Of a DNA stretch of 64,000 bases, positions 4,167 to 62,602 are shown piece after piece. The DNA lies in the IMG/VR virus record IMGVR_UViG_3300045988_184219. The stretch is one strand, 5' to 3'. A program made the position numbers and the translations under genes. This DNA comes from a virus. Every line of letters begins with the position of its first letter. Within the stretch, counting starts at the first letter, position 1. The notes under the pieces are model-generated. The model saw only the letters and a list, made by a program, of their open reading frames with translations, ran no database searches and was not told the DNA's origin.

Positions 4167-4748
4167 TCAAACGATAAGTGCTCCATTGGCGTCAAACGAA
4201 AGATTCAGCTTCTCAATGTACTTCACAACAGAATCATCATTGTTCATATTGTCTAAGAAAACACGCTTCGTCTTCTCGGCAACCTCCGCACAAGCCGCAT
4301 CAAACCACTGAACGAGTAGCGCCTCAATTTCCTCTTTGGCATACTCCTTACCATCCGCGACAACAATCACACCTTGGTCGAGAACGACAGAAGCACTCGT
4401 TTTATGACTCTTACTCCCGCCCTTAACTTCGATAGAGAGGATAGAATCGAGTCCTTCCTCTACTTCAAAGAAAATGAGATCGAGAAGGTTGTCAATATCG
4501 TCACCATCTTCTGCAAACACATAAAAGCGAGCAATATCTATTCCGCCATCAGGAAGGAAAGTCTTCTCTAACACAGAAGAACAAATATCCTCAACGGGAG
4601 CAAAGTTATCATCATAGGGAACATTCCAATAGTAACGCTCAACAATGTCATTCACATGAGAACGGTAGAACGGTGTCTTACGGACGTTCTCGATAGCGAG
4701 TTTCTGAGCGGATTCGCTCAAATCAGAAAAAGAAAAAGTTGTAGGCAT
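4167..4748 (-). CDS. paralog family C protein (193 aa)
   Basis: N-term FSFSDLSESAQKLAIENV and C-term YIEKLNLSFDANGALIV match the ~14-member family. Confidence 0.65.
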   Translation of the reverse strand: MPTTFSFSDLSESAQKLAIENVRKTPFYRSHVNDIVERYYWNVPYDDNFAPVEDICSSVLEKTFLPDGGIDIARFYVFAEDGDDIDNLLDLIFFEVEEGLDSILSIEVKGGSKSHKTSASVVLDQGVIVVADGKEYAKEEIEALLVQWFDAACAEVAEKTKRVFLDNMNNDDSVVKYIEKLNLSFDANGALIV

Positions 4749-6187: not shown

Positions 6188-6358
6188 ACGAAAAGAGCGC
6201 CCCTAGTCATCAGGACGCTCTCTCCGCGAGTTGTTAGTTGGTTTTAGAAAGGAGGATTCGCAACGGTGTTCCCCCGCCGCCCATTCTGCCACCATATCTA
6301 GCCGCTTGGCGACGGGGCACCGTTTGAGCCGTTCTGGGGTTCCGAACTCCCCTCGGCT
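6188..6358 (-). ncRNA. candidate small ncRNA cassette with 16S-3'-end-like tail (GGGGGAACACCGUUGCGAAUCCUCCUUUCUAAAACC) before terminator
   Basis: ORF-free GC-rich segment bounded by promoter-box variant TTTACTATTATAC (6361-6373) and hairpin+U-tract at 6196-6235; paralog at 32810..33005. Confidence 0.45.
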
Positions 6359-6435
6359 CATTTACTATTATACCTGTTTTGAAAATGTGTGCTGGGAGTT
6401 TTGCGCAACGGACGAGATTTTTTTGATAAACCAAA

Positions 6436-7155
6436 GGAAAAAAGAAAACGCCCCGCGACAAGCACGGGACGCTTTTTTGTCCTACTCCTCGGATGCAACT
6501 CACGCAGCACCCTTCCTGTTTCACCGACTACTTACGCGGGTTGTCCGCGACCTTCATCTCCACAGGCGCAACTTCCCCCACAGCAGGACGTACGGGGTAC
6601 AAACGGCACTCGCTCCACCTCTAGCCACAGGATGCGAGTTATTATCGGCTTCTCGGGGCTCACGCGGCGGGGTCACAGGACACCCTCACCCACCAGTTTC
6701 GCTCGCCACACCATCCGCTAATTTATTCCACCGTGGTTAGCCGTCATGAGGTCTTTGCGACGTAATATTTTCTATGTATCATCGTAGTTTATGGAGATTG
6801 CGCTCCAAATTAGTCCGTCACATCGGACGTTTGCCCGCCATCATAATTGCTTCTCCTCTCTAGGTCTTTGAAAACTTTGTTCAAAGTAGGGCTGTTTCCC
6901 GCATATCCGAATTATCGCGGAGCCATTATATCACCCGCCGCACCCCTCCATCGGAGTGCGTCTAGCACGCGGGGATTTTAACATTGTTTAGGCGGCACAG
7001 GGGATGCAGGGGTCGATTCCTGCGTCCTTGTGAGGGATTTGCTATCAGGAGGCTTATCGTTCCTCGCGTGTGCGCCGCAACATCCGCAGCGCGGGGCGAG
7101 TGTCGTGTCCTCTCTGTTCGATCCGCCCACCAACTTCTCGTCGGTGTCCCTCTCG
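6436..7155 (-). ncRNA. candidate large (~720 nt) structured ncRNA, copy 1
   Basis: No credible ORF, high GC, own promoter box TTTATTATAGCAGG at 7161-7174, intrinsic terminator (cguccc gugcuugucgc ggggcg + U-tract) at 6440-6480; ~85% identical paralog at 36500..37232. Confidence 0.5.
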
Positions 7156-7374
7156 ATGGTTTTATTATAGCAGGTTCGAACGAGGATGTGGAGAGTTTTT
7201 GTTAAACCAAAGATTTTCTTTTTGAAAAACTTTGCGGGCGGGGCGTTTGATGCGTGGGAGATGTGGAACGCGACGAAAGATTTTTACTTTTGGTTTATCG
7301 AATCCAACTGAACTGACAAAATCAACTCAGATTTCCGACTCTCCCGATTCGAATTTCTGACAAAAACGACTACT

Positions 7375-8361: not shown

Positions 8362-8915
8362 ACGAAAACACCCCGCCATTGCTGACGGGGAGTCTTCGCT
8401 ATATGGAGATAGTCCTTCGGATGGTTACGGTGGGTTAAGTAGAGTCATGCACCCCACGACTAAAGCCGGGGTTTGTCCCAGCCGACACGCTTCCGAGCGA
8501 TGCGAGGTTCAGACGGTTGAGAGGGAAAGACCCTCCCGACCTCCCTTCGGTGGGCGGAACATAAGTGGCATGACAGCGCCCCGTGCAACGCAGGTCATGC
8601 CTACGTTGCCACATTTTTCAACGAGTGCCTTTGCGCTAAATTCTGCGCCTACAACGGTTCTCTCGTTGCTTAAATTGTACCGTTTTTCAAGGAGATTTTC
8701 AACAACTTTTAAGAAAACATCCTCGAAAAGTAAAGTTTGACCGCGCCGATTCCTCCACATGCCTGAAGGAAGGGGCTTCCTCGGCGATTGAGGTGAGTTT
8801 GGTAAGTCATCTTCTTCAAGGAGTGTGCCACTATGACGAAATGGGCAAAACCGACCGAGAAGGACGCTCTGTGTACAAGACACAAGAGACCACCCGCGAC
8901 TCAATGGAAAGCCAC
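8362..8915 (-). ncRNA. candidate ncRNA cassette E2 (contains the 77-nt block shared with 46456..46532)
   Basis: GC-rich; terminator CCCCGCCATTGCTGACGGGG + T-tract at 8365-8395; the overlapping ORF 8509..8943 has no SD. Confidence 0.35.
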
Positions 8916-19759: not shown

Positions 19760-20656
19760 TTAGCTCTGAGAATAAGGAATCGTCTCATCACTGACAACAA
19801 ACGTCAGTTCATCTCCATCCGCATAAGTGCGGTTGATAACATAGCCGTTCAAAATTCTTCCTGAACTACCATCTGTGTGGTTCACAAAAGAGATCTCGTT
19901 GGGAGCTTTGTCATCATACGAGAACGAAAGGTTTGTAAAATCGGTTGGTGACTTAGCCCCACACATACGCGCTACCCACGCATTGTTAACCGCATCAGGG
20001 ACAAGTTCACCATAGTAGTCCTCACGAAGATCAGGGTACGGCTCAAGCTCAGGGCGAACCTTTCCGCCGACATAACTCATCTCATCGCGCATAGCATACG
20101 GGGACGGGTACTTGAATACCTTAGAGCCGTCCGCAGACACATAACTCTCAATCCCAGTCACACACTTAGCGACCGTGCCACCGTTCTCATCCTCACTCAC
20201 GTCGAGATCAAAGTTGCAAATCTCTCGCGGATCAGTCACAACAAGGTTGTCATGAGAGGCAAGATCGAGATGAAGGTCAAACTTGCAGAACGACTCCTTA
20301 TTGCCAGCGGCGAGACACTTGGAGGTAGTTTCCGCAACATTGGAGCACTTTCCATTCTCGCATACTTTCACATCGCCGAATGCAACGACTTCCATGTCTG
20401 CATCAGCCTTCTTCATCTTGTCCTTGTAACTCTGGCTAATGCGGTCAGCGGAATACTCACACGTTCCATCACAAACGTAAGGCTTTGCGTTCTTCGCGGG
20501 GCGCTTGTACTTTCCGTTGATATGATGTTCAACCTCAAGTTCAGCCGCCTTTTCAAAAGCGGTATCTGTGGATGTGCCAGAGGAGGCAAAGCTCACACTT
20601 GTTCCACCAATAACGATAAGACTTGCTACGGCGAAAGACTTCATAATGTTTTTCAT
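19760..20656 (-). CDS. secreted cysteine-rich protein (299 aa, signal peptide)
   Basis: N-term MKNIMKSFAVASLIVIGGTSVSFASSG after SD AAAGAAAGGAAG; multiple Cys pairs; hairpin terminator 19720-19755. Confidence 0.6.
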   Translation of the reverse strand: MKNIMKSFAVASLIVIGGTSVSFASSGTSTDTAFEKAAELEVEHHINGKYKRPAKNAKPYVCDGTCEYSADRISQSYKDKMKKADADMEVVAFGDVKVCENGKCSNVAETTSKCLAAGNKESFCKFDLHLDLASHDNLVVTDPREICNFDLDVSEDENGGTVAKCVTGIESYVSADGSKVFKYPSPYAMRDEMSYVGGKVRPELEPYPDLREDYYGELVPDAVNNAWVARMCGAKSPTDFTNLSFSYDDKAPNEISFVNHTDGSSGRILNGYVINRTYADGDELTFVVSDETIPYSQS

Positions 20657-23099: not shown

Positions 23100-23520
23100 A
23101 CCCACTCATTATTATAAAGGTGAGCTATCTTTCCGTTTCATTAATCAAGCTGTTTTATATCAACCAACCATCCTTTTCGTCTTTCCAAGTTCATCATACT
23201 GCTCCACCCAATTCTTCAAATGAGCATCCGCAACAGAGAGAGACACGGACGGATAGCGACGAATACAGTTGCCATTCTTATAATATCGCACTTGAACTCC
23301 CCACGACTCTCATCGCGGGATTCTCGGGTCGTTCGCAACTTAGACACCTTCTCACCGCAAATGAGACGTTGATCCAGTGCCCAGAGGTCGCGAAAAATTA
23401 CCGAGCTATCCCCGTCGTCCCAACGGTTCGGTAAGGCGAAAAGTTCGTTGATAAGCCAAAGGATTAGGCGGATTTGTCGCGAAACTTTTCATCGAGTTCT
23501 ACGAGGAGCCGAAGCCCTTC
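23100..23520 (-). ncRNA. candidate TnpB guide RNA (omega/reRNA) region: 3' end of tnpB plus downstream right end
   Basis: ~400 nt ORF-poor segment downstream of tnpB where IS605-family elements encode their guide RNA; not verified structurally. Confidence 0.3.
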
Positions 23521-24621
23521 GCAGAGAATATTCTGTGCCGCGTTGAGGTCGCGGTCGTGATGATGCCCACACTTCGGGCAGATCCACTCACGCACGCTGA
23601 GTTCCTTGACGGCGGGGTTTTTGAAGCCGCAATTTCCGCAGGTCTGCGAGGAGGCGTAGAACCTGTCCACAGTGAGGAGAACGCGTCCGCGCCAGAGAGA
23701 CTTGTATTCGAGCTGTCGTCTAAGTTCACCCCACGAGGAATCCGCGATGTGACGGGCGAGACAGTGATTCTTTATCATCCCGCTCACGTTGAGGTCTTCA
23801 ATGAAGATAACCCCGTACTTTTTTGTGACAAAGTTCGTTAATTTATGAAGGTAGTCCTCTCGTTGTGCCGCAATTTTTGCGTTCAGCCGTGCCACCTTGA
23901 CCCGAGCCTTCTCGCGACGCGCACTCGACTTTGATTTTCGGTCGAACGAGCGTTGCAGAAATTTCAGGCGATTTAAGGAGGTATTGAGCGGCTTGAGCGC
24001 GTCAAACTGCGTGCCATCGGAGAGGATTGCGAGGTCTTTGATGCCAAGGTCGATGCCGACAGGATCTTCATTGTGCTCCAACACAGGCGCAGGAACGTCG
24101 GTTGCGCAGATCGAAATGTAGTACCGCCCGTCTGGTTCGATACGCACGGTCGCACTGAGGATTCTGCCCTCTGGAATGAGGTTCTTCCCTCCGCGAATCC
24201 GCACCCTGCCGAGCTTCGGAAGCTTGATATGCGTCCCCTCAAACGCGATGTTGTTATTCGTGAAATTCGTCCGATAACTCTGATAGTTGTCGCGTTTGGA
24301 CTTGAAGCGTGGATAACCAAACTTCCTCTTGCGCGACGAGTTGACCGTTCCAAAGAAATTATCATAGGCTTTATCGAGATCGCGAAGGGCGTTCTGTAAC
24401 GCACATTTATCGGGTTCGAGGAGGAACGGGAGTTCACGTTTGAGGTCGGTCAGCCGTTTGCTACACGCGTTGTAACCGAGCGTTTTCTTCGTTTCCGCGT
24501 ATGTGTCGATTCGGAGTCGAAGAAAATAATTGTAAATAAATCGTTTACACCCGAACGTCTTTTTAATCAAGTCACGTTGCTTTGCGTTCGGGTAGGCACG
24601 GTACACGTACCCCTTTTCCAT
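23464..24621 (-). CDS. tnpB: IS200/IS605-family TnpB (RNA-guided RuvC nuclease, OrfB)
   Basis: RuvC-I GIDLGIKD, RuvC-II IFIEDLN, zinc finger CGNCG...CPKCG, RuvC-III RDLNAAQNI; 385 aa; no tnpA. Confidence 0.85.
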   Translation of the reverse strand: MEKGYVYRAYPNAKQRDLIKKTFGCKRFIYNYFLRLRIDTYAETKKTLGYNACSKRLTDLKRELPFLLEPDKCALQNALRDLDKAYDNFFGTVNSSRKRKFGYPRFKSKRDNYQSYRTNFTNNNIAFEGTHIKLPKLGRVRIRGGKNLIPEGRILSATVRIEPDGRYYISICATDVPAPVLEHNEDPVGIDLGIKDLAILSDGTQFDALKPLNTSLNRLKFLQRSFDRKSKSSARREKARVKVARLNAKIAAQREDYLHKLTNFVTKKYGVIFIEDLNVSGMIKNHCLARHIADSSWGELRRQLEYKSLWRGRVLLTVDRFYASSQTCGNCGFKNPAVKELSVREWICPKCGHHHDRDLNAAQNILCEGLRLLVELDEKFRDKSA

Positions 24622-24725
24622 TTGGTCAATCCACCTCCTTTTATCTCAAAACTTCATTGTTATTATAACATTTTCTCTATCGAAAATCTACCGATTTTCG
24701 AAGACTTTCCTTTTTACCCGCTATC

Positions 24726-27735: not shown

Positions 27736-28359
27736 ATGGAAGATGGCACAAACAAAACAACAGTTTTAACAAAAGAAGAATGTATAAAACTTAGAAAAGA
27801 ATTGCTAGGGGAAGAAGAAATAAATTTTCAAACATTTATTAAAAGCCGTTTAACCGAATTAAACCTACAACAAAAACACCTAGCAGATATGTGCAACGTA
27901 AGCGATAAGACAATTTCTAAGTGGTGTTCTGGAAGGGGGCTTCCCGACATAATGATGATTCCTGTTTTGGCAGAGACATTAGATGTTTCAATACATGCGA
28001 TTACAAACTCCATTTTTGGAATTCGAGATTATTATACGGTTGATGATTTAACTTCGAGAGCTATTTTAGATGGAGTGATAAAAGAAAAGAACGAATTTCC
28101 TGATGCAGATTGTATAGCGGGAGCTTTTATTGGAAAAAGTGAATATAACCTATATTTACTCTTAAAACACATATATAAAACAAATGGTGTAGAATATACG
28201 ATTAACGATTTTCTCAAAAGTGATGAGTTTCGTCGGATTTGTTCAATTAAGCGTATAGCAGTATTGCAAAAGGTGTTCATGTGGTTCCAGAACGTCAAGA
28301 TCTATAATTGGGATAAAGAAAGAGATTTTGAGTTTAGAAAAGAGGTTAAAGTAAAATGA
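27736..28359 (+). CDS. XRE-family helix-turn-helix transcriptional regulator (207 aa)
   Basis: HTH LTELNLQQKHLADMCNVSDKTISKWCSG; low-GC codon usage unlike its neighbours; opposite strand. Confidence 0.7.
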   Translation: MEDGTNKTTVLTKEECIKLRKELLGEEEINFQTFIKSRLTELNLQQKHLADMCNVSDKTISKWCSGRGLPDIMMIPVLAETLDVSIHAITNSIFGIRDYYTVDDLTSRAILDGVIKEKNEFPDADCIAGAFIGKSEYNLYLLLKHIYKTNGVEYTINDFLKSDEFRRICSIKRIAVLQKVFMWFQNVKIYNWDKERDFEFRKEVKVK

Positions 28360-28667
28360 AGTTAGTAGGAAATGAACAAGACGTTCTTTTTTTACAAGAC
28401 GTACATCAGTTATTGTTATCAAAACATAAAGACGATATAGAAAAATTATTATTTATAAGTGGCTGGAAAGAAACACAGATAAAAGTATTTCTTTATTTGT
28501 TAAAGTCTATTTGTTTCGAGATAAATGAAAAAGAGTTGTCTTTACTATTTGGTGTATATGATAGAAGATCAGGGGGAGCACTATCCTTTCGAGGTGACAA
28601 CGGGGGGTATCATTGGGATGTCATGTCTCAAGAAAATGTAAAAAGTTGTTTAACTAAATTGATGTGA
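28356..28667 (+). CDS. hypothetical protein (103 aa), co-transcribed with the XRE regulator
   Basis: 4-nt overlap with upstream stop; same low-GC composition. Confidence 0.55.
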   Translation: MKLVGNEQDVLFLQDVHQLLLSKHKDDIEKLLFISGWKETQIKVFLYLLKSICFEINEKELSLLFGVYDRRSGGALSFRGDNGGYHWDVMSQENVKSCLTKLM

Positions 28668-30699: not shown

Positions 30700-31384
30700 A
30701 AAACCATCCTTTCTGAATCAAGAAAACGAACTCGATATATTTATTATATAACAAGGATGGATAGAAAGAAAGATAAACGCCTAGAGGAAGCGAGAAGAAA
30801 AGGGAGGAAGAGAGGAAAAACAGATGTTAAAGAAAACAAAAACTGCGCACCGTTATTTATCGGTACGCAGTTTTCGCGAGTTGGTTTATGTTCCTCGTCA
30901 TTTGACAAGGTAGAAAGGAGGCTTATTTATGCGGAGGGGTCGCTAACAGAAAGGATACGAAACCGTAACAACCAGTTCTCCGCCTGTACCATCGTGCCAT
31001 TACGACCACATGCGCAACTGCTCGGTACAGTTTCTATTATAATCATTGAAAGAGAAGGTATTTGGAGTTTTAATTTTAGATGTGTTTTTTGTTTTCAAAA
31101 CGAAAAAACGCCCCGTGACCATTCGGGACGTTTTTTCTGAGTTGTGTCAACCTATTGCCCACTATGAGCAAGCAGAAAGGAGGATCGAGAAGAGCGGCCA
31201 TTGCCCATCTCGATACACATATATTCTACCACAAACAAAAAAGTTTGTGGAGATATTTTCACAAGACAAGCAAAATTTTCTTTTATATCCGACAAAAACG
31301 ACACCAAACGAGAAAGCCTCAACCTCACGCTAGATGCCGCCGTTTCCTTTGGTTTATCAAATAAGATTAATTCATAAAAGAAAC

Positions 31385-32461: not shown

Positions 32462-32809
32462 TAGTGCAATCTTCCTTTCTTTGAGAGATTTTTTATTTTG
32501 AAAGATATTTCTATGATAGCACTTTTTAGTGTGATTTTGGAGGTAAAAATTGTAGGCATTTGTTAGATGCAAAAAGAACGCCCAATTAAGGACGCTCCGT
32601 TTGCAGATTGTTTTTTAGAAAGGAGGCGATGCTTTCAATCACCCTAAACCAACAAGAATTTTACGTGTCAGCTTGGTCAAGCATCGTAGGGTGTTTCCTG
32701 ACTTCTTTGACAGTATAACTGATAGTTAAGTTCCACGATGAAGTTTTTGTTTTTACGTGGATTTTTTTTGATAAGCCAAAGAAAAGGTTGCAAGGAACGT
32801 TTCGGTGCA

Positions 32810-33005
32810 TACGAAAAGAGCGCCCTTAGCCATCAGGACGCTCTCTCCGCGAGTTGTTAGTTGGTTAGTTGCTATCTTTCGATAGCCAGTCAGAAAGGAG
32901 GATTCGTAACGGTGTCCCCCGCGGCCCATTCTGCCGCATATCTAGCCGCTTGGCGACGGGGCACCGTTTGAGCCGTTCTGGGGGCTACGCTCGCTCCCTC
33001 GGCTC
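32810..33005 (-). ncRNA. candidate small ncRNA cassette with 16S-3'-end-like tail (paralog of 6188..6358)
   Basis: Near-identical promoter-proximal 150 nt to 6210-6365, with an extra GCTATCTTTCGATAGC hairpin inserted; ORF 32869..33342 shares only the nt-identical part. Confidence 0.45.
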
Positions 33006-33214
33006 ATTTACTATTATACCTATTTTGAAAATGTGTGCTGGGAGTTTTGCGCAATGGACGATTTTTCTTTTTCTATTTTCTTTTTTCCACCCTCACACAC
33101 AAAAAACCGACAACAATAAAACAAACACTTATTCCCGCAAAGAAACACAAAAGAAAAGACCATTGGAAGATGAAAGAGTTTCTTCCTTTGATCTATGTCC
33201 TTTCGACAAAACGG

Positions 33215-36499: not shown

Positions 36500-37232
36500 T
36501 AAAAAATGAAAACGCCCTGCGACAAGCACAGGACGTTCTCTCGAACACTTTCCACACAATAAGTCACGGGATCATCCCCCTCGGGATTCAACGGCAACTC
36601 ATTGTACTGCAACCACCGATGTTCACACGGCTGGTATCATCATCCTCGCGCCCCACAACGAGGAAACCACAAGATTTTGGGGCAATATTTGACGGCACTC
36701 GCACCACCTCTAGCCACGCGTGATTTGCAGTTACGAGCGACTTGTCGGGACGTATCTTCGCGGCGGGGTCAACGGGTGTTATGCCCTCTCCCACCATCCA
36801 GTCCACCATCCACTCCTCTTGTGCGTGGTTAGCCGTCATGAGGTCTTTGCGACGTAATGTATGTTATCAGCCGTAGTTTAGGGAGATTGCACTCCGAATC
36901 AGTCTATCACATCGGACGTTTACCCGCCATCATGGTTGCTTCTCCTCTCTAGGTCTTTCAAGCTCTTTTTTCAAAGTAGGGCTGTTTCCCGCTTATCCGA
37001 ATTCTCGCGAAGCCCTTATATCACCCGCCGCACCCCACCATCGGAGTACGTCTAGCACGCGGGGATTTTAACATTGTTTAGGCGGTCGAGGTTGCTCGCG
37101 GAGGTCGATTTCCACGTCCTCGGGAGAGACTCTCAACAGGTGTCTAGCGTTCCTCATGTGCGCCGCTTTAGCTGCGCGGAGTTGCGTCAACCTGCCTGAG
37201 CCGCCTACCAACTTTTCGTCGGTGTCCCTCTC
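36500..37232 (-). ncRNA. candidate large (~730 nt) structured ncRNA, copy 2
   Basis: Paralog of 6436..7155: shared blocks GGTTAGCCGTCATGAGGTCTTTGCGACGTAAT and GTCTAGCACGCGGGGATTTTAACATTGTTTAGGCGG; promoter box 37238-37250; terminator 36510-36545. Confidence 0.5.
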
Positions 37233-37365
37233 GATGGTTTTATTATAGCAGGTTCAAACGAGAATGTGGAGAATTTTTGTTGAGTCGAAGGTTTTTCTTT
37301 TTCGAGAGAGGTGGGAGGTGTCGGGAACCAGTTTCTTTGGCTTATCCTATCCGACTTAACCGACT

Positions 37366-43476: not shown

Positions 43477-44823
43477 TCACGCGGACTCCCGACGAGGCGA
43501 GTCTGTTGGACGAGCAGCCAAACCAGCACAGGCGATCCTTGTCGGCGCTACCATAATCGGGCGTAGCACAACGCCCTCTATCCCGTCGGCAAACGCGTTC
43601 GGGACTACTTTTTTCACGATCTGCAACGCTCCGTTTACGTCCGCATTCACGCGTGTTCCGTCGTTTGAACGGAATAATCCTCGATGAATACGACGCTTTT
43701 TGTTGTAAAATTCGCGTGTCGGGGGCTCTCCGTCCAGAAATGATGTACCGCTCGTATAGCTTTCTTCTGTTACGACAACAGCTATACCATGTTCATACGC
43801 TTTGTACTCGATCATTTCTATCAATCGGGCGAACGGGAGTCCTACAAAATGCTGGTTCTCCTTCGCCGTGAACGGGGTGCGCTCCTTCCAGTCGCGGTTT
43901 AGACCAATGATAAGTGTCGGAATATTCTGTGCGACGAGGCGATCTACGATGAGGCGCGAGGTCTTGTGCAGGTAATCCTTGAGTTTTGCGTTCCTTTTGT
44001 CAATCAGGCGTTGGATTCTCCGCGTCACTTTCCTCCCATTGAGGTGCTCCGACATCTCACGGAGAGACGCCAAACGCTTGTTGTAGAACTGGTTGATCGA
44101 CTTCGGGATGCGACCGTTTACGATGATCGGAGCGTCCCCCGTGGAGAACGCCATCGTAACGAAGTTGTTTACGCCGAGGTCAATTCCTGCGTATCTCCCG
44201 TTGGGCTTTCTCTGAGGAACTTCCTTGATTCTGTAAACGATTTCAAGGGTGATGAACCCTCCGTGCGGGACAAATCGAACCTGTTGAAACGACTTTATTT
44301 CACGAGGGCTGTTAGTGTCCTCGCGGATGAACTGCGGCTCAACCGTGAACCCCTTGAAAACTTTTGGAAACACGATTTTTCCATCCCGAATTTTACACTC
44401 TTGACTCGTTAAAGTTAGAACGTGCTTTCCATCCTTCTTTAGAAAATGAGGCGGTTTCGGACGACCCTTATACTTTTCAGGGTGCTTTTTCCAATCTTTA
44501 AGTTCTTCCCAAAAACTTTTCCAGTCTGTCACGAGCAAGCGTAAATTCTGCTGTGCGCTCTGTGCCGTCGGCATGTTCCGATAGTCGGGAAAGTCCGTTT
44601 TCGACTTCAGGATTTTGTCAAGTTGTTCATAACTCGACTGTTTCTCGTGCGCGAAAAACTGTTGCCGAAGTAGATAATTCCCTTGATTATAAAGGTTTTT
44701 TGACATGTGACAAAACTCCGCGAGCATTTCATACGCGGGGTGAGTCTCCTTGATGATGTGTTGCTCCACGCGAACAAAGGGATCTTTCTTTTTCTTCGTT
44801 TTTGGCTTTTCTTCCGTTTTCAC
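43477..44823 (-). CDS. TnpB-derived protein lacking zinc finger and RuvC-II Glu (possible nuclease-dead, TldR-like)
   Basis: RuvC-I GIDLGVNN present, DYLHK block aligns with the intact TnpB, RuvC-II position reads IIGLN (no Glu), YTSGTSFLDG replaces the CxxC zinc finger, NADVNGALQI retained; ~200 aa N-terminal extension; standard cassette promoter at 44878-44900; only 67 nt to the next gene. Confidence 0.6.
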   Translation of the reverse strand: MKTEEKPKTKKKKDPFVRVEQHIIKETHPAYEMLAEFCHMSKNLYNQGNYLLRQQFFAHEKQSSYEQLDKILKSKTDFPDYRNMPTAQSAQQNLRLLVTDWKSFWEELKDWKKHPEKYKGRPKPPHFLKKDGKHVLTLTSQECKIRDGKIVFPKVFKGFTVEPQFIREDTNSPREIKSFQQVRFVPHGGFITLEIVYRIKEVPQRKPNGRYAGIDLGVNNFVTMAFSTGDAPIIVNGRIPKSINQFYNKRLASLREMSEHLNGRKVTRRIQRLIDKRNAKLKDYLHKTSRLIVDRLVAQNIPTLIIGLNRDWKERTPFTAKENQHFVGLPFARLIEMIEYKAYEHGIAVVVTEESYTSGTSFLDGEPPTREFYNKKRRIHRGLFRSNDGTRVNADVNGALQIVKKVVPNAFADGIEGVVLRPIMVAPTRIACAGLAARPTDSPRRESA

Positions 44824-46274: not shown

Positions 46275-46690
46275 AGCGCTTTCTTTACGCTGTTTTTGCT
46301 CGTTTTCCTTTGGCTTACAACGCCGATTTTGTAACTCCCAAGTCCATTATGGCAAGGGAGATAGCACCTCGCGCTTCCGAATTGTCGCGAGAGCCGATTA
46401 TTTCCACCCGCCCGCACCTTTCGGCACGATCTAGCGCGCGGGGGATTTACTTAGTCATGCACCCCACGACTAAAGCTAGGGGCTTGTCCCAGCCGACACG
46501 CTTCCGAGCGATGCGAGGTTCAGACGGTTGAGAAGGAGAACGGGGCTCAATTTGCGAGTTGGTTTAGAAAGGAGGCTTTTCCCCGCACACAGTAAAAGCG
46601 GGAATTCATGGAAACCGAGGCTGTGCCCCGCCGAGCCGACATGCCGACGGAAGCCACCCCTAGCTGACAGCCGCATTCTTCGCAGCTACT
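46275..46690 (-). ncRNA. candidate mosaic ncRNA cassette (shares 77-nt block with 8447-8523, GCGCGGGGGATTT module and CCUCCUUUCUAAACC tail)
   Basis: ORF-free GC-rich; promoter-box variant CACATTATAGCGCAAC ~46715; hairpin + T-tract terminator 46270-46305. Confidence 0.4.
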
Positions 46691-46849
46691 TGAGCACCAT
46701 CGTCCGTGCCATCAGCTATGTTCACATTATAGCGCAACAGGAAGGTGCGTGGGGAGAAAAAGAGAAAACGGTAGAAAAGTTTTTTGATTTTCAACAAAAG
46801 CCCCTTCCCAATAACGGAAGTCTTTTCCTTTGGCATATTTTACAAAAGA

Positions 46850-58073: not shown

Positions 58074-58652
58074 TTAGTCGATGTCCTGCCCGTCCGACCA
58101 ATATAGGTCGTTCTTCCCAACCAGATAAGCGTCCACGGTGATGTCCCAGTACGCTTCCGAAAGAAGTTGGAGGACGTTGAGTCGAACCTTGGAACAGAGA
58201 ACATAGAGCGCGTCCCTTGCCCACATACCAGCTTTAAAGAAATCATCGTTTCCGATCTTTGCGTCCGTGTCAACATCACTGAAAACTCTGTCGTTGACGC
58301 AAACCGCGTTGATTTCCGCGAGTGTTTCGATAACACCGTCACAAATCGGATAGGTGGAGAGATTGCGAATTTTCCCGACGAACTTCTGAGTCGCCTCTTT
58401 ATTGTAGATTCCAAAATCCACACTCACAACCGCGCCGTACGGACGACCCTCCTTGTCCAGATCACCCTCCCAACCGACGTGGATCTCAACGTCGTTCTTA
58501 GTGAGTCCGAACTCATTGTAGAGCGTACTCTCTGCGTTCAGTCGCGCCGCTTCGATTGCGTGGGCGAGATAGGCGAGGCTTGCCTTTGTACGCGCCATAA
58601 CACGATCTTTTGCGACTGGGTGGAGGTCAACGTAGCACTCTTTTGTTTCCAT
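58074..58652 (-). CDS. paralog family C protein (192 aa)
   Basis: C-term YLVGKNDLYWSDGQDID; cassette block 58671-58707. Confidence 0.6.
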   Translation of the reverse strand: METKECYVDLHPVAKDRVMARTKASLAYLAHAIEAARLNAESTLYNEFGLTKNDVEIHVGWEGDLDKEGRPYGAVVSVDFGIYNKEATQKFVGKIRNLSTYPICDGVIETLAEINAVCVNDRVFSDVDTDAKIGNDDFFKAGMWARDALYVLCSKVRLNVLQLLSEAYWDITVDAYLVGKNDLYWSDGQDID

Positions 58653-58867
58653 AATTTTTCTTCCTTTCTTTTCAACAACTCTTGATGTATTTATTATATA
58701 ACTTTTCTTAGAAGGATGAGCGTATTTTCAGTAGGGAAAGTTTTTTTTGAAAAGAAATGTTGTCTGAGATGTGTCCTTTAGTCTATTCGCTCAAACCTTT
58801 CCGACAAAAGCGACTAATCCGACTCAGATTTCCGACTCATCCGACTTTCTCGACAAAACCGACTACT

Positions 58868-61947: not shown

Positions 61948-62074
61948 TTTTTTCTATCCTTTCTGTGAGAGATCTTTTAACAACTCTTGATAGATTTATT
62001 ATATAGCTTTTTACTAGACCAAAAGAGAAAAACGACACGCGAACAAGATTTTGTTTCTTGTAGGTGTGTCGTTT

Positions 62075-62270
62075 GTTTCAATCCGCGCACTCCATACAGA
62101 GTGCGATTTTGCGCTCAATGGCTTTATTGTCTCTCAGGTTTCAATCCGCGCACCCACGAAGGGTGCGATGGGCATAATTTCAACCCACACTACCTATACG
62201 GGTAGTGTTCTCTTTACACTGAGCACAATAGAATCGGGTTTCAATCCGCACGCCCTATACGGGGCGTGAT
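62075..62270 (-). CRISPR. mini CRISPR-like array, type I-C-like repeats: R1 62075-62107, spacer 62108-62137 (30 nt), R2 62138-62169, degenerate repeat ~62178-62207, spacer ~62208-62237, R3 62238-62270 (leader-proximal)
   Basis: Minus-strand repeats ATCGCACTCTGTATGGAGTGCGCGGATTGAAAC / ATCGCACCCTTCGTGGGTGCGCGGATTGAAAC / ATCACGCCCCGTATAGGGCGTGCGGATTGAAAC; constant GCGGATTGAAAC handle, hairpin stems kept by compensatory changes; no cas genes in the window. Confidence 0.55.
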
Positions 62271-62602
62271 GGCAACACATAGCAAAATTAACCAAATCCG
62301 CGCACTCACTACTCCACTCACCCATCAAAATCGACGTAATTTAGGAAATCCATTCCCGATCACGCATCCTTGCGTCGATCCTCTCCGAGAGAAACGTGTC
62401 GATTTTATGTTCGTTTAGGATTCGCACTAAAACTGTCCTTTGGCTAATCCAACCGTCATTTTTGTGTTGCGGTTGCAAGATTTCGGTCGCCACCGCCAAA
62501 CGACCTTCTTTTGGTCAAATTCACGTCGCCCAACCAAGCGACGGGTTCGACCTTGCTAGACAATCAACGGTCTCACCGAACCTTTCCCATTGGTCTATTA
62601 AC
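62271..62602 (-). other. conserved ~330-nt leader-like element (copy 3 of 3) adjacent to the mini-array
   Basis: GGCAACACATAG ... CGCATCCTTGCGTCGATCCTCTCCGAGAGAAA ... GCGGTTGCAAGATTTCGGTCGCC ... shared with copies at 7707 and 22093. Confidence 0.5.

Follow-up and report, generated by a model that had tools for sequence, protein, structure and literature searches.

Why should a virus carry, on one strand only, repeated copies of a sequence that reads like the 3' end of 16S ribosomal RNA (rRNA)? The question arises from IMG/VR record IMGVR_UViG_3300045988_184219, of which a stretch of 64,000 nt (the window) was analysed; the element from which it derives is probably large and of viral origin, and looks like a huge phage or a phage-like megaelement. 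A first-pass annotation had reported four minus-strand cassettes that end, just before their terminators, in a mimic of the ribosomal sequence complementary to the Shine-Dalgarno (SD) motif, hereafter the anti-SD. The motif is real, while its count has to be raised: the minus strand has six copies of CCTCCTTTCT and the plus strand none, against 0.13 copies expected by chance, and none of 100 shuffles reached six. Read on the plus strand it is AGAAAGGAGG, in the same orientation throughout, at 6246-6255, 30912-30921, 31174-31183, 32617-32626, 32892-32901 and 46566-46575; the copies at 30912 and 31174 had been overlooked, and the positions originally given are up to ~20 nt off (6258-6275, for example, is the GGGGGAACACCGUUGCGA stretch just 5' of the motif). 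The base after the decamer is A in four copies (CCUCCUUUCUA) and G in two. As RNA, CCUCCUUUCU(A) is the 3' end of a Firmicutes-type 16S rRNA, from which that of the host may differ. All six decamers are identical to this terminus, and in four of them the identity includes the A. Herein we propose, at somewhat less than even confidence, that the cassettes encode trans-acting anti-SD/anti-leader small RNAs (sRNAs) that compete with 30S subunits on the element's own messenger RNAs (mRNAs).

Every copy of the decamer belongs to a discrete minus-strand unit (U1 to U6) that, by sequence prediction, lacks an open reading frame (ORF), begins with a promoter-like site, continues into a structured body and closes with an intrinsic terminator, which makes the earlier proposal of noncoding RNA (ncRNA) genes on this strand plausible. 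U1 (type A, 6189-6398) comprises a promoter-like CTCCCAGC-N18-TATAAT at 6367-6398, a body at 6256-6365, a tail at 6226-6255 and a terminator at 6189-6225; its tail reads CCUCCUUUCU-AAAACCAACUAACAACUCGC, that is, the anti-SD decamer followed by two overlapping motifs complementary to mRNA leaders (anti-leader motifs, see below), and orthologues lie at 4284-4503 (+) of the related locus L131 and 2622-2403 (-) of L132. Its type A paralogue U2 (32812-33044; promoter 33013-33044, body 32902-33011, tail 32849-32901, terminator 32812-32848) has promoter and body in common with U1, at 94% identity over 84 nt, and its tail consists of CCUCCUUUCU, an inserted hairpin (GGCUAUCGAAAGAUAGC) and then AACCAACUAACAACUCGC. 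Another related locus, L238, starts inside a U2 orthologue in which a different hairpin occupies that place and the decamer and AACCAACUAACAACUC are kept. U3 (~32570-32725) has a -10-like TTATACT, a body at 32627-32711 with GAUUGAAAG 5 nt before the decamer, a tail at 32603-32626 (CCUCCUUUCUAAAAAACAAUCUGC, with a degenerate anti-leader part, AACAAUCUGC) and a terminator at 32570-32598; its orthologue in L238 keeps the decamer and has AAAACCAACUCUGC, with a hairpin resembling a clustered regularly interspaced short palindromic repeat (CRISPR) inserted between the two. U5 (31101-31252) and U6 (30837-31067) are the units missed previously. The former has a TCCACA-17-TAGAAT promoter with a TG extension at 31223-31252, a short hairpin body at 31184-31218, a tail at 31137-31183 (decamer, hairpin, ACACAACUCAG) and a terminator at 31101-31136, with an orthologue in L238; the latter has its promoter at 31036-31067, body at 30922-31034, tail at 30876-30921 (decamer, hairpin, AAACCAACUCGC) and terminator at 30837-30875. 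Orthologues of U2, U3, U5 and U6 occur together in L238.

The remaining unit, U4 (type D, 46538-46756), has its promoter at 46726-46756, body at 46576-46719 and tail at 46554-46575 (CCUCCUUUCUAAACCAACUCGC), and retains only the 5' half of its terminator (46538-46553), the hairpin having been broken off after GTTC by a rearrangement, so that the transcript would continue towards ~46285. The position just before a terminator (hairpin, then T-run) is thus found for five of the six copies and not for the one ending at 46575, whose terminator has lost its 3' half; in the U4 orthologues L001 20480-20694, L018 1744-1958, L035 8136-7922 and L092 8190-7976 the terminator is intact. An ~80-nt element (TCAACCGTCTGAACCTCGCATCGCTCGGAAGCGTGTCGGCTGGGACAA..GTCGTGGGGTGCATGACT) is present twice in the window, at 46440-46530 (-) and 8440-8520 (-); one copy interrupts the loop of the U4 terminator, and the element may be an IS200/IS605-type insertion end or a recombination scar. 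The terminator stems of the units comprise 9-17 pairs and are followed by a U-run. Their bodies are rich in G+C and fall into five types, with no similarity between them except in the U1/U2 pair. The promoter pattern CTCC(A/C)CA-N16-19-TATAAT is absent from the plus strand and has nine minus-strand matches (58019, 46756, 37271, 33044, 31252, 31067, 19566, 7193 and 6398), of which seven stand before ncRNA units, namely five of the six tail-bearing units and both copies of a ~720-nt ncRNA described below; the sixth unit, U3, has its -10-like site only. This points to separate control of the ncRNAs and the protein cassettes, with a second promoter class for the former.

What the tail resembles beyond the decamer becomes clear when it is set against the leaders of the element's ~30 small genes. 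The protein cassettes follow a uniform order, in which a canonical promoter-like box T(A/T)TA(T/C)AAT(A/G)A, mostly GTTATATAATAAA (34 sites on the minus strand, three on the plus), precedes a short leader, often with GAGTTGTT, then the SD AGAAAGGA and, 7-10 nt on, the ATG; as RNA, the leader runs GAGUUGUU, a variable spacer, AGAAAGGA, 7-10 nt and AUG. The cassette start at 58652-58709 (-), TATATAATAA-atacatcaaGAGTTGTTgaaaAGAAAGGAagaaaaattATG, exemplifies the proposed class of targets. The tails run CCUCCUUUCU(A), an optional hairpin, (A)ACCAACUC or AACAACUC, and then the terminator, the small hairpin in the spacer being present in U2, U5, U6 and the L238 copy of U3. Five of the six units have CAACTC no more than 50 nt downstream of the decamer, against 1.5% expected per such window (P = 4e-9, or 2e-7 if the U1/U2 paralogues are counted once). 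Read on the other strand, the module becomes GAGTTG(T/G)T, spacer, AGAAAGGAGG, which is the layout of an mRNA leader, and genuine leaders, when reverse-complemented, read CTTCCTTTCT-N-AACAACTC, the same layout as the tails and with a variable spacer in both. With up to one mismatch, GAGTTGTT occurs in 13 of the 34 canonical leaders, compared with 3.9% of random 40-nt windows, and the looser AGTTG(T/G)T in 22 of 34, compared with a background of 14.6%; five of the six tail reverse complements contain GAGTTGTT or GAGTTGGTT at the same tolerance. Aligning the loci therefore reveals similarity that reaches beyond the 10-nt SD complement, and the extra part, which had been attributed to 16S helix 45, is the reverse complement of GAGTTG(T/G)T from the element's own leaders. 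On sequence grounds, the extension is an anti-leader box and not helix 45. The same module was also found in related elements, both in the orthologues and on two further bodies (L124 at 357 and L018 at 2164).

Across orthologues from other metagenomes (L131 and L132 for type A, L001, L018, L035 and L092 for type D, and L238 for U2, U3, U5 and U6), conservation of these RNAs is highest in the tail. Among ungapped type A columns, one of 30 is variable in the tail and 24 of 106 in the body (P = 0.0097), and the corresponding figures for type D are 0 of 24 and 36 of 151 (P = 0.0025). Between U6 and its L238 counterpart, one of 46 tail positions and 15 of 85 body positions differ, the internal UCCUUUCU of the body is not kept and the changes in the terminator are compensatory. 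In single-sequence folds, the decamer is unpaired with a probability of 0.80-0.96 in five of eight units (U1 0.96, U2 0.80, U6 0.89), against whole-RNA means of 0.33-0.47, and the type A consensus fold leaves the whole tail open, so that an anti-SD stretch is predicted to lie unpaired between stem-loops. The description of the cassettes as ORF-free was confirmed, in that neither strand has a conserved ORF; indels of 1-2 nt separate the paralogues and orthologues, and no reading frame survives them from copy to copy. Sequence architecture, statistics, conservation, predicted accessibility and the lack of coding potential are shown here.

We infer from these features that the units are transcribed, that they pair with mRNAs in vivo and that the direction of the effect would be repression. 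In such an sRNA, a structured 5' body, of one of the five unrelated types, would be followed by a seed that is single-stranded and exposed, and then by the intrinsic terminator. The putative seed has two boxes, CCUCCUUUCU(A) and, up to ~40 nt on, (A)ACCAACUC or AACAACUC, and would form the antisense image of the shared leader 5'-..GAGUUG(U/G)U..(8-35 nt)..AGAAAGGA-N7-10-AUG. By pairing with both leader boxes, the sRNA would occupy the SD with the bases that the 30S subunit would use and add an anchor of 6-9 bp at GAGUUG; the ribosome would be out-competed, and duplex-dependent decay might be triggered. The expected outcome would be a co-ordinated shut-down of cassette genes, later in infection or in a quiescent state, and since the sRNAs have a promoter class of their own, their timing can be independent of that of their targets. 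Predicted duplex energies with 28 leaders average -14 to -21 kcal/mol, compared with about -11 kcal/mol for the decamer alone, and the best predicted target is the leader at 19514-19467 (-33 to -41 kcal/mol). If this reading is right, ~100 uniform cassettes would be controlled post-transcriptionally by a handful of ribosome-imitating sRNAs, the conserved leader would be a common address for regulation in trans, and the system would be an RNA counterpart of protein-based early-gene shut-off. RegB of phage T4, a protein endonuclease that cuts GGAG, shuts off a class of early mRNAs via the SD. The analogy is a functional one and lies in the inactivation of a whole class of early messages through the SD, and the differences are that the agent proposed here is an antisense RNA and that the element's SDs lack GGAG.

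This last point concerns SD usage, for which the first-pass annotation had assumed that the genes of the window use the extended SD AGAAAGGAGG. That proved wrong: they use AGAAAGGA, which occurs at 31 mRNA-strand sites, nearly all 7-10 nt before an ATG, and is followed by A, T or C, with GGAG or GGAGG at none of the 31. Whereas GG follows AGAAAGGA at 0 of 31 mRNA sites, it does so in the complements of all six tails (Fisher P = 4e-7), and the 16S-like flanking A is found in four of six tails, compared with a T before AGAAAGGA at four of 31 mRNA sites (P = 0.013). The GG and A counts imply that the tails match the Firmicutes-type 16S terminus better than they complement the leaders. The element's SDs pair with the last eight bases only of that 16S rRNA. 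That the commonest Firmicutes SD core should be avoided completely is unusual and has no explanation, and in combination with the full CCUCC on the sRNAs, avoidance of GGAG hints at a conflict over SD recognition during infection.

Several of our results weigh against repression directed at the element's own leaders. Because none of the SDs extends into GG, leader pairing does not account for the conserved CC of CCUCC, in place of which U would pair better; the CC would be accounted for by identity to the 16S terminus or by pairing elsewhere with sites of the GGAGG type. A close match to GAGTTGTT is present in only about one-third of canonical leaders, and no perfectly complementary leader was found in the window or in the related loci fetched. 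Shuffling the extension had only a modest weakening effect on leader pairing (z = -0.2 to -2.4). Of the eight folded units, three have the decamer partly paired, with an unpaired probability of 0.38-0.57, and the relatives are all close, their aligned DNA being mostly 75-95% identical.

One alternative, which we consider rather unlikely, is that the tails are by-products of cassette shuffling, in which an inverted leader and SD beside a terminator was spread among ncRNA cassettes by recombination at the conserved boundaries and has either no function or a function as a recombination module only. The setting lends itself to such an origin. The cassettes are uniform, with 34 near-identical promoters and conserved boundary motifs, of which one (Mend, GATAGACCAAAGGAAA) follows stop codons and its inverse (Mprom, TTTCCTTTGGTCTATC) precedes promoters, and the arrangement resembles the shuffling mediated by promoter-early stem-loops (PeSLs) in T4-type phages (PMC2839356). 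A core of ~25 nt, CCUCCUUUCUAAA(A)CCAACUC, is near-identical in U1, U4, L124 and the U3 orthologue of L238, pointing to one common origin, and the tails themselves bear traces of rearrangement in the form of hairpin insertions and a deletion between CCTTTCT repeats. However, conservation is significantly higher in the tail than in the functional-looking bodies next to it, the tail falls in the predicted single-stranded window between stems, no promoter remnant lies beside it, and the next hairpin has the orientation of a minus-strand terminator. The systematic difference from real leaders at GG further implies that the tail is not a recent leader copy. The earlier suggestion of an inverted remnant of a cassette 5' untranslated region thus described the form of the tail correctly, while a dead remnant does not fit, since the tail is the part that is best conserved. 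With regard to the boundary motifs as such, we observed that both are SD- or anti-SD-like and could pair in read-through transcripts.

It is unlikely, to a slightly greater degree, that the tail genuinely mimics the 3' end of 16S rRNA and would, as a takeover device, titrate strong GGAGG SDs of the host or of another gene class, or would be a decoy for a factor that recognizes or cleaves the 16S tail (a nuclease, a toxin, or a maturation or hibernation factor). The contrasts in GG and in the flanking A speak for it, as does the avoidance of GGAG by the element's genes, which is expected if the infected cell contains an agent acting on GGAG(G). In addition, AUC or AUCG precedes the decamer in U1, U2, U3 and U5, like GAUCA-CCUCC in 16S rRNA, a likeness noticed post hoc. 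A mimic of this kind would not need the CAACUC anti-leader box, which is nevertheless strongly enriched and conserved; the related unit at 2164 of L018 has UCUCCUUUCU; and no candidate partner protein is found among the 78 ORFs scanned. A more general version, in which a huge phage carries free copies of the anti-SD tail on unrelated scaffolds as a device against SD-dependent initiation or 16S-3'-end factors, with identity to 16S rRNA selected instead of complementarity to leaders, is in our judgement a shade less probable again; examples would be the masking of host GGAGG sites while the element's own genes use the GG-less AGAAAGGA, or a decoy for an anti-SD-directed nuclease. Compared with the 3' minor domain of 16S rRNA, CCUCCUUUCU(A) is identical, is single-stranded right after a stem and is preceded by AUC in four units, but the decamer here is internal, with more sequence and a terminator behind it, rRNA context is lacking and a hairpin like that of helix 45 is unsupported.

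The resemblance to the 16S tail that had been reported previously therefore stands for the decamer, an exact copy of the Firmicutes-type terminus, and is unsupported for the helix-45 part. The sequence GGGGGA(A)CACCGUU(G/A)CGAAUC does precede two copies, in the units ending at 6255 and 32901, as had been stated. However, GGGGGAAC or GGGGGA(A)C is limited to a single body type, type A, where it forms the 3' strand of a long hairpin by pairing with GUGCCCCGUCGCC. Over four sequences, this hairpin of 17 pairs has 97% of its cells paired, compared with 82% for the seven pairs of the helix-45-like GGAA hairpin that can be drawn from the same bases, in which pair 90-108 is broken in three of the four; neither hairpin has compensatory changes, and with four sequences the power is low. 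A helix-45 mimic is thus unsupported, given its restriction to type A, the better paired competitor and the lack of an rRNA model match, although the pair test is a weak one. Rfam returned no match for the whole window at gathering score, no rRNA match up to E = 5-10 for three sub-regions around the units searched at permissive E-values, and no known family for three related loci. A resemblance of the type A hairpin to the decoding site in helix 44 was also dismissed upon inspection, since its GAA bulge is on the wrong side of the GUC element (in 16S numbering).

Action in cis appears very unlikely. The anti-SD would in that case pair, in read-through transcripts, with the SD of the next gene and act as an insulator, or would take part in an alternative fold of its own RNA. 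Another transcription unit does lie directly downstream of each unit, the decamer is partly paired to an upstream purine run in three units (e.g., GAAAGG in type D), and the boundary motif Mprom (UUUCCUUUGG) is anti-SD-like as well. Yet the terminators are strong, with the long stems and U-runs described above, and the downstream genes differ, U1 being followed by a methylase gene with a weak, atypical ribosome-binding site and U2 and U5 by another ncRNA. The bodies contain no conserved partner sequence, and the CAACUC box would be left unexplained.

More improbable still is a guide or spacer of an RNA-guided system (a TnpB omega-RNA, a TldR-like guide or a guide resembling a CRISPR RNA, crRNA) that directs a protein to leader DNA. 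Two TnpB-like proteins are encoded in the window, both on the minus strand (43477-44823 and 23464-24621, OrfB_IS605 / Cas12f1-like TNB), and a scaffold followed by a 3' guide is the layout of omega-RNAs. The element also has type I-C-looking CRISPR repeats and solitary handles, one of which, GGAUUGAAAC, lies directly 5' of a tail-bearing segment (L018, 2137) and another inside the U3 tail of L238, and in the window GAUUGAAAG comes shortly before the U3 decamer. Nevertheless, five unrelated scaffolds would require five proteins, and the variable spacing of the boxes, with hairpins between them, is incompatible with a continuous guide. The units have promoters of their own and are not adjacent to tnpB 3' ends, and their bodies show no similarity to tnpB regions; an RNA that overlaps or abuts a tnpB 3' end, with one scaffold per protein, as for omega-RNA and TldR systems, was not found. 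The repeat handle is absent from most tails, with contact limited to L018 (2137), U3 of L238 and, weakly, U3 of the window, and no cas genes were seen in protein scans of the window. Nor do the units have the repeat hairpin and handle flanking a spacer of fixed length that characterize a crRNA, true arrays being located elsewhere in the element.

These arrays have a 32-nt repeat, ATCGCACCCTTCGCGGGTGCGCGGATTGAAAC, which to us looks like a type I-C repeat. In the window, a short array occupies ~62050-62280 (-); it was found by pattern search and was not picked up by Tandem Repeats Finder, and Rfam CRISPR-DR models gave no match at gathering score. Solitary repeats lie at ~55790, 22070 and 7684 (-), each behind a conserved leader (families D11, D14 and D15), and L001 has two five-repeat arrays, at 1431-1727 and 20137-20430 (+), with a spacing of 65-67 nt. 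There is also a family of ncRNAs that end in a degenerate repeat handle (..GTCGTTGACGCGGATTGAAAC) followed by variable sequence (L018 2137 and 4994; L035 835; L092 9367 and 6341; L132 4009; L001 15781; L238 276-372). In L018 the degenerate handle is fused to a tail-bearing 3' part, and in L238 the solitary repeat hairpin inside the U3 tail has a direct CCTTTCTA repeat on both sides. The handle-ending units could be solitary repeat units or RNA anti-CRISPR-like elements. TnpB-like genes are likewise found in the relatives L004, L005, L234 and L235, and among those of the element and its relatives together, one has a canonical cassette promoter.

The least probable alternative is a function of the plus strand, where AGAAAGGAGG would be a real SD, a decoy or a stabiliser for a transcript or small peptide, as in a type I toxin-antitoxin system: it reads as a textbook strong SD with a leader-like GAGTTG before it, and short ORFs can be drawn after some copies (5 codons after 30912, 11 after 6246), but no promoter-like site lies upstream of any copy, a hairpin oriented as a minus-strand terminator takes the promoter's place, no start codon stands at a usable, consistent distance across copies, ORF lengths are inconsistent, no small conserved toxin ORF with an SD was found, frame-breaking indels separate the paralogues, and the minus strand has nearly all genes and all 34 canonical promoters, so that the plus-strand SD decoy proposed in the first-pass annotation is not supported. 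Among the few plus-strand features of the window is a gene pair at 27736-28667, of which the first encodes an HTH_3 repressor-like protein and has a normal SD (AAAGGAGG); the pair could be a lysogeny- or maintenance-type switch region.

Returning to trans-acting repression of the element's leaders, anti-SD seeds left unpaired between stem-loops are an established sRNA design in streptococci, where they occur in the CiaR-dependent small RNAs (csRNAs) (PMC3091779). Other Gram-positive sRNAs with anti-SD or C-rich seeds are likewise among the nearest known systems. In common with the present units, the csRNAs have stand-alone genes of ~100-200 nt with at least two stem-loops around an SD-complementary stretch and an intrinsic terminator, and several paralogues have one seed, for which a block of ribosome access has been proposed (PMC3091779). 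The seed differs here in being an exact copy of 10-11 nt of the 16S 3' end combined with a leader-complementary box, instead of an anti-AUG sequence. Furthermore, the bodies of our units are mutually unrelated, the carrier is phage-like, the promoters belong to another class and the proposed targets are the element's own leaders. By Rfam, the units are homologous neither to csRNA or RsaE nor to any other curated family, and the likeness is in design only. The units are best classed as a variant of the anti-SD sRNAs that is carried by a huge phage-like element and matched to that element's own uniform leader, and the excess of identity to 16S rRNA remains interesting. As to the genomic setting, in T4-type phages arrays of small ORFans flanked by a conserved strong promoter and a terminator stem-loop (PeSLs) favour modular shuffling (PMC2839356). 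The flanked small-gene cassettes of our element are comparable, but PeSLs are DNA or regulatory boundary modules and not sRNA genes, and they have no anti-SD element, whereas the element additionally has inverted boundary motifs and a conserved transcribed leader. The layout of the window as a whole, with ~80 ORFan genes that each have their own promoter and terminator, is likewise reminiscent of the PeSL regions of T4-type phages.

The window has a G+C content of 44%, and its ORFs are nearly all on the minus strand. Among the 78 ORFs scanned, a handful matched Pfam or PHROGs entries (an RNA ligase, a polynucleotide kinase, a Band_7 protein and helix-turn-helix (HTH) regulators), and a separate protein scan identified a C5 methylase, a SNF2 helicase and the two TnpB-like proteins; transfer or transfer-messenger RNA genes were not found. 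The SD and promoter style suggests a Firmicutes-type expression apparatus and a corresponding host. A megablast search of 25 kb against phage and plasmid collections gave no match, and for the SNF2 protein of the window an exact look-up retrieved no record. Contigs of close relatives measure 145, 179 and 406 kb and come from metagenome assemblies only, and, for the closest SNF2 homologue, the record of its protein cluster lists a further contig of 252 kb; it is because the collections had no match and the relatives are on large metagenome contigs only that we regard the element as a huge phage or a phage-like megaelement. Sources of related contigs are the ENA assemblies ERZ28634879, ERZ773035, ERZ773063 and ERZ28634730, together with BNJU01004582.1. 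Most matches of the IMG/VR pattern scans were ordinary SDs in reverse complement, and a single viral contig was a true relative. In the GTDB genomes the pattern scan gave two matches, in metagenome-assembled genomes of Thermodesulfobacteriota and Bacteroidales, where ~17 were expected by chance; belonging to unrelated phyla, both are taken to be chance matches, and the element is therefore not in species-representative genomes. Band_7 homologues on other large contigs (55-89% identity) do not carry tail-bearing units.

Lastly, the structured, G+C-rich ncRNA of ~720 nt mentioned above is present in the window in two copies, at 6445-7170 (-) and 36520-37250 (-), each with a TCCACA-17-TATAAT promoter and a strong terminator. 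No Rfam family matches it; it is kept in relatives (L001 17600-18370 (+)), and its central domain (AAAUCCCCGCGUGCUAGAC..GGCGGGUG..) recurs at 2410-2750 of L018, at ~46300-46480 of the window and upstream of the TnpB gene near 24720.

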